Assembly: GCF_965641715.1 (NCBI RefSeq)
Contig: NZ_OZ282453.1
Strand: one strand, 5' to 3'
Length of the DNA: 64,000 bases
Source of the DNA: Escherichia coli
Lineage (GTDB): Bacteria > Pseudomonadota > Gammaproteobacteria > Enterobacterales > Enterobacteriaceae
Shown here: piece by piece, positions 31,548 through 31,641 of the stretch
Layout: each line of letters opens with the position of its first letter
Position numbering within the stretch: position 1 is the stretch's first letter
Program-made: the position numbers and the translations under genes
The notes under the pieces: model-generated
Told to the model about the DNA's origin: nothing
Database searches by the model: none
The model's input: only the letters and a program-made list of their open reading frames with translations

Positions 31548-31641
31548 ACCGGTCACCAGGACCCCAGGCCGGATTTAAGACGAGGATGCACTGCTGTGTG
31601 TACTGTAGAGTCTGGCGGATGTCGACAGGCTCTATTTTTTT
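31548..31641 (+). ncRNA. mcaS: candidate small RNA, McaS-like (CsrA-binding GGA motifs, intrinsic terminator)
   Basis: ...CCGGAUUUAAGACGAGGAUGCACUGCUGUGUGUACUGUAGAGUCUGGCGGAUGUCGACAGGCUCUAUUUUUUUAUU; resembles McaS as I recall it; ends not mapped. Confidence 0.4.

Follow-up and report, generated by a model that had tools for sequence, protein, structure and literature searches.

The stretch of DNA analysed here, a window of 64,000 nucleotides from an Escherichia coli contig (NZ_OZ282453.1), carries the 96-nt gene of the small RNA McaS (mcaS, also isrA or IS061) at 31548..31643 on the plus strand. The gene order around it is smrA, a DHA2-family MFS efflux permease gene (28026-29540, minus strand), a HlyD-family adaptor gene (29537-30568, minus strand), an AraC-family regulator gene (30662..31477, plus strand), mcaS, a remnant of abgR, a remnant of abgT, and ogt (32021-32536). 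In E. coli K-12 the order is smrA, mcaS, abgR, abgA, abgB, abgT, ogt. The MFS gene, the HlyD gene and the divergently transcribed AraC-family gene form a 3.6-kb island (27842-31441) between smrA and mcaS that is absent from K-12. The AraC-family gene is the last of the island, and its stop codon lies 70 nt upstream of the mcaS +1 on the same strand. Downstream of mcaS, the 3' remnant of abgR, a pseudogene with ~80% identity to K-12 (31650..31862, minus strand), meets the 3' remnant of abgT (31862..32010, plus strand) at a deletion junction at 31862, where 5,040 bp are gone, which held abgA and abgB in full and the greater part of both abgR and abgT. RefSeq annotates the abgR remnant in A30, ATCC 11775 and E2348/69 as a frameshifted, incomplete LysR-family gene. 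The abg genes serve p-aminobenzoyl-glutamate utilisation, and a 67-aa ORF at 31807-32010 is the tail of abgT. An earlier note on this DNA had placed the element upstream of ogt, which holds for the window, where ogt lies 377 nt downstream of mcaS, but not for K-12, where abgR and abgABT stand in between.

When the whole window was scanned against Rfam 15, a full-length match to RF00115 (McaS/IsrA) was obtained at 31548..31643 on the plus strand, with 112.8 bits against a gathering score of 42, an E-value of 3.5e-20, and model positions 1-96 of 96 covered with both ends complete. The alignment to K-12 mcaS was equally positive (88.5% identity over 96 nt), and the promoter is conserved as well. 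The earlier note had suggested a McaS-like small RNA; these two results bear this out and carry it further, in that the element is the mcaS orthologue itself. It is almost certain that this orthologue has its own promoter and an intrinsic terminator and represents the second major E. coli allele. McaS is an E. coli regulatory small RNA for curli, flagella and biofilm genes and has been characterised since 2012. What lies here is already known, as a common allele and haplotype that has previously been sequenced and transcript-profiled. The statistical weight of the assignment comes from homology, namely the covariance-model E-value and the 5,385 of 5,426 complete E. coli genomes that match a 183-nt query of promoter and gene, while the sequence features alone are only mildly unusual. 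Indeed, at least four GGA motifs occur in 2.5% of the 96-nt windows of the 64-kb sequence (P = 0.059 in mononucleotide shuffles), and with a weak folding-energy z-score of -1.22 thermodynamics alone would not single out the mcaS region. None of six inspected RefSeq/PGAP records, a K-12 derivative included, annotates mcaS, and the region is shown there as intergenic beside abgR or its remnant. The call made here fills this annotation gap.

As read from the sequence, transcription would start at A31548 from a sigma-70 promoter belonging to the gene itself, with the -35 hexamer TTGGCA (31512..31517), an 18-nt spacer and the -10 hexamer TATAAC (31536..31541, -12..-7). Further upstream, also on the plus strand, we found a candidate CRP-like site, CGTGA-N6-TCACT (31488..31503, -60..-45), which agrees with TGTGA-N6-TCACA at 8 of 10 positions. 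All three elements are identical to K-12 and invariant in six aligned E. coli alleles, and the other positions of the 70-nt upstream stretch contain five differences to K-12, in the spacer and at -4. The statement of the earlier note that the 5' end is not defined by the sequence alone can be revised: position 31548 is Rfam model position 1 and lies 7 nt downstream of the -10 hexamer, and in the enteropathogenic strain E2348/69 the outermost starts of RIL-seq reads lie no more than 2 nt from the predicted end (1,568,899, compared to a predicted +1 at 1,568,897 in NC_011601). The centre of the CRP-like site is near -52.5, which is neither of the classical CRP activator positions, -41.5 or -61.5. 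McaS has been reported within the CRP regulon (PMC3634460), and its glucose regulation in K-12 is only partly CRP-dependent.

At the other end of the gene, the Rfam model and RNAfold agree on an intrinsic terminator (31605..31641, plus strand). Its hairpin (31605-31635) consists of 10 bp, a 1x1 internal loop, 2 bp and a 5-nt loop that holds the A of the fourth GGA, and is followed by U7 (31635-31641). The hairpin and U-run described before are therefore present, with the arms AGAGTCTG (31607-31614) and CAGGCTCT (31626-31633) and the stretch TTTTTTT (31635-31641). Of the extent first proposed, 31548-31641, the start was correct, and the end falls short by two bases, as the model runs to 31643. 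Termination at this strong site would yield a 96-nt Hfq-binding RNA. A consensus promoter and terminator scan called neither the mcaS promoter nor the mcaS terminator. The promoter was most likely missed because the rule requires a T at the last -10 position, which is a C here, and the terminator hairpin that escaped the simple scan has a 1x1 internal loop near its tip. We rejected these misses as evidence against mcaS, since the elements can be recognised by eye, show conservation and were recovered by RNAfold.

The minimum free energy structure computed with RNAfold comprises three hairpins, namely a first stem-loop, one in the middle and the terminator, with U7 behind it. Stem-loop 1 (31549..31572, plus strand; nt 2-25) is supported by both the Rfam model and RNAfold and pairs CCGGUC with GGCCGG around a 12-nt loop, ACCAGGACCCCA, which carries an AGGA with the first GGA (31559-31561). 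The second GGA (31571-31573) straddles the 3' end of the stem. The third GGA (31584-31586) leads into the conserved base-pairing core AUGCACUGCUGUGUGUAC (nt 39-56, 31586-31603), defined by csgD pairing and alignment, and together they span 31584..31603 on the plus strand; the middle hairpin surrounds the core. In total, the several GGA motifs noticed at the outset amount to four, at McaS nt 12, 24, 37 and 70 (window 31559, 31571, 31584 and 31617), the same positions as in K-12.

To what extent is this architecture conserved beyond E. coli? The cross-species comparison is based on one pattern scan of species-representative genomes, using a pattern that fixed columns 53-57 and 67-79. It gave 13 enterobacterial loci from Escherichia, Citrobacter, Pseudescherichia, Trabulsiella and an unclassified Enterobacteriaceae genome, all confirmed by Rfam at 69.6-108.7 bits; 20 further pattern matches in high-GC genomes were discarded as chance. 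In the resulting alignment of 15 sequences the 3' 60 nt are almost invariant, with columns 53-57 and 67-79 invariant by construction. The core (nt 39-56) is invariant or nearly so in these 15 sequences from six genera, although the pattern fixed only columns 53-56 within it. The terminator helix is 100% paired in all 15 sequences, with changes on both sides at three pairs in Trabulsiella. By contrast to the 3' part, nt 4-36 are highly variable, yet the first loop always contains a GGA, and the stem of stem-loop 1 is kept through changes within Escherichia.

Compared to K-12 mcaS, the window allele differs at 11 of 96 nt (nt 6-10, 15, 16, 18, 20, 36 and 82). Nine of these differences cluster at nt 6-20, which form the top of stem-loop 1 (P = 2e-5 in a scan-corrected permutation). 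Pairing is kept despite the exchanges, as C6-G21 and G7-U20 of K-12 become U6-G21 and C7-G20 in the window, and the loop retains AGGA while its sequence changes from GCAGAGGAGACA in K-12 to ACCAGGACCCCA in the window. C36A directly precedes the GGA of the second CsrA site; in stem-loop 2 of the Rfam model it replaces a C-G pair by the weaker A-G, and RNAfold favours a slightly different middle hairpin. Through A82G one U-A pair of the terminator becomes U-G, the only difference between the two terminators. Otherwise the two genes share the locus between smrA and ogt, the length of 96 nt, the +1, the CRP-like site, the -35 and -10 hexamers, the three hairpins, the four GGA positions and an identical csgD seed (nt 39-56). 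They differ in their neighbours: K-12 has the smrA intergenic region upstream and abgR-abgT downstream, whereas the window has the MFS/HlyD/AraC island upstream and has lost abgR-abgT. Among the 5,426 complete E. coli genomes, ~1,053 carry the 183-nt sequence at 99% identity or above and a further 410 at 95-99%, compared to ~3,900 with the K-12 type or a sequence near it. The window allele is therefore the second major E. coli allele, present in about a quarter of complete genomes when near-identical forms are counted. Other versions of stem-loop 1 occur in divergent genomes labelled E. coli (E69, SCPM-O-B-8794), in Escherichia sp. E1V33, in E. albertii and in E. whittamii. Work on McaS that is based on K-12 thus uses an allele from which that of about a quarter of E. 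coli, B2, EPEC and APEC strains among them, deviates at 9 of the 15 nt in the top of stem-loop 1, the region that combines the strongest CsrA site with an flhD contact.

At least 80% of the window's 6-kb arrangement is found in ~1,002 of the 5,426 complete E. coli genomes, including ATCC 11775 and EPEC E2348/69. A BLAST comparison of the K-12 locus with the window gave more than 99% identity up to 27841 (20990-27841), 80.9% over 31442-31862 and again more than 99% from 31862 (31862-33609); K-12 intR homology starts at window 20990. The 421-bp block of low identity (31442-31862) comprises mcaS and the abgR remnant, and homology to K-12 is unbroken from 106 nt upstream of the mcaS +1 into that remnant. 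Since the final ~36 nt of the AraC-family gene still have a homologous counterpart in K-12, it was K-12 that lost the island and not the window that gained it. In FDAARGOS_1370 the haplotype is full, as the strain has the island and also an intact abg operon. Its mcaS is window-like, with a single difference (U6C), and right behind the terminator the sequence continues as K-12-like abgR. This switch, together with the 80.9% block, points to an old divergent haplotype and a probable recombination breakpoint just downstream of mcaS. The MFS gene of the island is marked as frameshifted by RefSeq in A30, ATCC 11775, E2348/69 and FDAARGOS_1370. In the window it forms an uninterrupted 504-aa ORF, ~59 nt longer than those pseudogene annotations, and may thus be intact.

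Is this allele expressed? E2348/69 (NC_011601) is identical to the window over promoter and sRNA, with a single mismatch in a 219-nt overlap, located ~45 nt past the terminator. The type strain ATCC 11775 likewise carries the identical promoter and sRNA, and both strains share the gene arrangement, including the 'mcaS.ogt' intergenic region. E2348/69 differs from the window's strain in its background, and espC, an EPEC island gene, may be absent from the latter. In the transcriptome of Pearl Mizrahi et al. 2021 (PMC8550237) its mcaS is listed as E2348CN_ncR16, and the main text of that paper makes no mention of McaS outside the reference list. Under activating conditions the supplementary tables give a baseMean of 3,983 and a log2(delta-hfq/wt) of -7.31 (padj 3e-82), under non-activating conditions a baseMean of 544 and a log2(delta-hfq/wt) of -2.58 (PMC8550237). 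The identical sequence is hence transcribed and Hfq-dependent, so that both the similarity to mcaS and the transcript that an McaS-like RNA calls for are present. In the Hfq RIL-seq data of the same study, reads with mcaS as the first RNA have their outermost starts at the position given above, and read positions on the mcaS 3' side begin at the equivalent of window 31642-31643. From the identity to E2348/69 we infer that a Hfq-dependent RNA of ~96 nt is probably also made in the window's strain. McaS reportedly co-regulates the LEE in EPEC. It was detected in Hfq pull-downs from UPEC UTI89 as well (PMC4546395).

RIL-seq in E2348/69 further identifies the partners of this allele (PMC8550237). 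The csgD 5'UTR was recovered in 164 chimeras with mcaS in three libraries (P = 1.5e-153), flhD in 37 chimeras that passed the filter in one library only, the lrhA upstream region in 38, the sbmA 5'UTR in 37 and yncL in 40. The most frequent partner was the coding region of espC, an island-encoded autotransporter (357 + 197 chimeras; PMC8550237).

In K-12, McaS base-pairs with csgD well upstream of the ribosome-binding site and represses it by directing endonucleolytic cleavage (PMC6061853, PMC3634460), and it activates flhDC by opening an inhibitory leader structure (PMC3634460, PMC3971182). For our own target search we used windowed duplexes of 22-24 nt with accessibility terms; unrestricted duplex folding against the flhD and csgD leaders had given meaningless hybrids of more than 100 nt and was replaced by the windowed search. 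For csgD, a perfect 16-bp duplex is predicted between McaS nt 39-56 and leader nt 51-67, with a hybrid energy of -29.6 kcal/mol in both alleles and totals after accessibility of -18.1 kcal/mol (window allele) and -16.8 kcal/mol (K-12). Of 5,345 matching E. coli records, 4,747 have a csgD leader with at least 99% identity to K-12. In K-12, and in vivo also for the identical sequence in E2348/69, the single-stranded core (nt 39-56) pairs with the csgD 5' leader at this distant upstream site; in the window's strain Hfq- and RNase E-dependent cleavage would follow, resulting in less curli. The RNA may likewise bind the lrhA leader and the flhD leader, with flagella activated through the latter. 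For flhD the predicted duplexes are weak in both alleles, with -1.4 kcal/mol for K-12, and -3.6 (ATCC 11775 leader) and -4.8 kcal/mol (K-12 leader) for the window allele. With these energies and with chimeras from a single library, the flhD arm is not firmly established for the window allele. For espC, an 11-bp duplex with McaS core nt 39-53 is predicted inside the RIL-seq read range (NC_011601 3,008,413-3,008,427). We also considered an interaction via the variant loop, but the predicted allele-specific site (-13.0 kcal/mol) falls outside that range, and espC pairing therefore most likely uses the csgD seed.

A further function of McaS depends on CsrA. Two of the four GGA motifs bind CsrA and thereby relieve pgaA repression (PMC10729762, PMC3971182). 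The 5'-most GGA, in the loop of stem-loop 1, is the stronger site and overlaps an flhD pairing site, and the second site overlaps the csgD seed (PMC10729762). By analogy, the GGA motifs of the window allele in the loop of stem-loop 1 and next to the seed would bind CsrA and relieve pgaA repression. McaS has in common with the sponges CsrB and CsrC that CsrA-binding GGA motifs lie in loops or single-stranded stretches, and Rfam places McaS in clan CL00106. However, McaS has 4 GGA compared to 22 in CsrB and binds about two CsrA (PMC10729762), and unlike CsrB/CsrC it is also a Hfq-dependent base-pairing sRNA, for which CsrA titration is a minor arm (PMC10729762, PMC3971182). We considered a dedicated sponge of the CsrB/CsrC type, with more than ten hairpin-loop GGA and no seed, and ruled it out, given four GGA in 96 nt and the long csgD seed.

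Does the variant stem-loop 1 change the function of the RNA? One could imagine that mcaS has functionally diverged, with a new stem-loop 1 that alters CsrA affinity, flhD activation or targets such as the csgD Shine-Dalgarno sequence while the core keeps csgD repression. The clustering of nine of the 11 changes at nt 6-20, which hold the strongest CsrA site and an flhD pairing site, would fit such a divergence, as would the hypervariability of these nucleotides across Escherichia lineages and genera, with the remainder nearly invariant. C36A also brings the second CsrA site nearer to the SELEX consensus (ARGGAU in the window, CGGAU in K-12), and a 7-bp pairing of the window loop to GGGGUUU is predicted at the ribosome-binding site of csgD (-6.7 compared to +0.1 kcal/mol for K-12). 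Nevertheless, AGGA and the stem are kept in every allele, which suggests a conserved function with unconstrained flanking loop bases; csgD, flhD and lrhA are all still recovered as partners in E2348/69; and for espC it is the conserved-core site, not the allele-specific one, that lies within the RIL-seq range. In E. coli the flhD leader is variable, and five of its positions differ between K-12 and ATCC 11775, a strain with the window allele. The five do not compensate for the changes in stem-loop 1, and one of them weakens the best predicted pairing site, so that co-evolution of leader and stem-loop is unsupported. Based on these observations we consider a functional divergence unlikely. Slightly less likely still is the idea that stem-loop 1 is a lineage-variable specificity module, in which the stem and AGGA stay constant and the flanking loop bases are replaced between haplotypes and genera. 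If so, the two major alleles would differ in CsrA affinity or in the mRNAs paired by the 5' arm, a candidate gain would be the 7-bp contact to the csgD Shine-Dalgarno sequence, flhD activation might be altered, and natural, phylogroup-linked differences in the switch between motility and biofilm would be expected. A tuning of CsrA or flhD by stem-loop 1 is possible, at low probability, and we found nothing solid for allele-specific consequences. Most simply, constraint acts on the stem and the loop AGGA, and the remaining loop bases can vary freely.

Three further explanations concern the existence of the gene as such. The co-directional AraC-family ORF (30662-31477) raises the possibility that the element is mainly the 3' UTR and terminator of that gene and that a McaS-sized RNA arises partly from read-through and processing. 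A simple terminator scan found no terminator-like site between the AraC-family stop and mcaS (31478-31547), so AraC-family transcripts probably enter mcaS and end at the McaS terminator. Yet the CRP-like site, -35 and -10 of the K-12 promoter are preserved exactly, and this promoter suffices in K-12, where smrA is divergent and no co-directional gene lies upstream. Moreover, the RIL-seq starts coincide to within 2 nt with the predicted +1. Read-through would add to the output of the mcaS promoter and not substitute for it; as the main source of the RNA it is very improbable, while the AraC-family gene could provide a second route to McaS that is unlikely to replace the conserved promoter. Could the element instead be a decaying relic among pseudogenised neighbours, with remnants of abgR and abgT next to it and an MFS gene that is frameshifted in several strains? 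The annotation of adjacent genes as pseudogenes and the 80.9% identity of the 421-bp block between flanks above 99% might be taken to say so. Within the block, however, the promoter elements, the seed, the GGA motifs and the terminator are all conserved, and changes at paired positions keep pairing; since the same sequence yields an abundant, Hfq-bound RNA in E2348/69, this explanation is effectively refuted and its remaining probability is minute. The chance that the region encodes a small protein is smaller still and practically nil. A six-frame list does contain an ORF of 33 aa at 31546-31647 (minus strand) and one of 32 aa at 31596-31694 (plus strand), but such a list is purely mechanical, the conservation is RNA-like, with co-varying paired columns and tolerated single-base gaps in loops, 60 nt are invariant across genera without third-position wobble, and an RNA covariance model matched end to end. 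We therefore retain the assignment as an expressed mcaS orthologue.

Further RNA genes were detected in the window. The sRNA FnrS is full-length (RF01796, 134.8 bits; 24565-24682, minus strand) and occupies its K-12-syntenic position near zntB and dbpA. The antitoxin sRNA RalA, which belongs to the ralR/ralA toxin-antitoxin pair of the Rac prophage, is full-length as well (RF02694, 205.5 bits; 20077-20255, minus strand). A sok-type antitoxin RNA (RF01794, 113 bits; 6323-6497, minus strand) suggests a hok/sok-like locus. This RNA and a tRNA gene (65.6 bits; 2785-2856, minus strand) are presumably part of a prophage or island located upstream of the Rac-like region.
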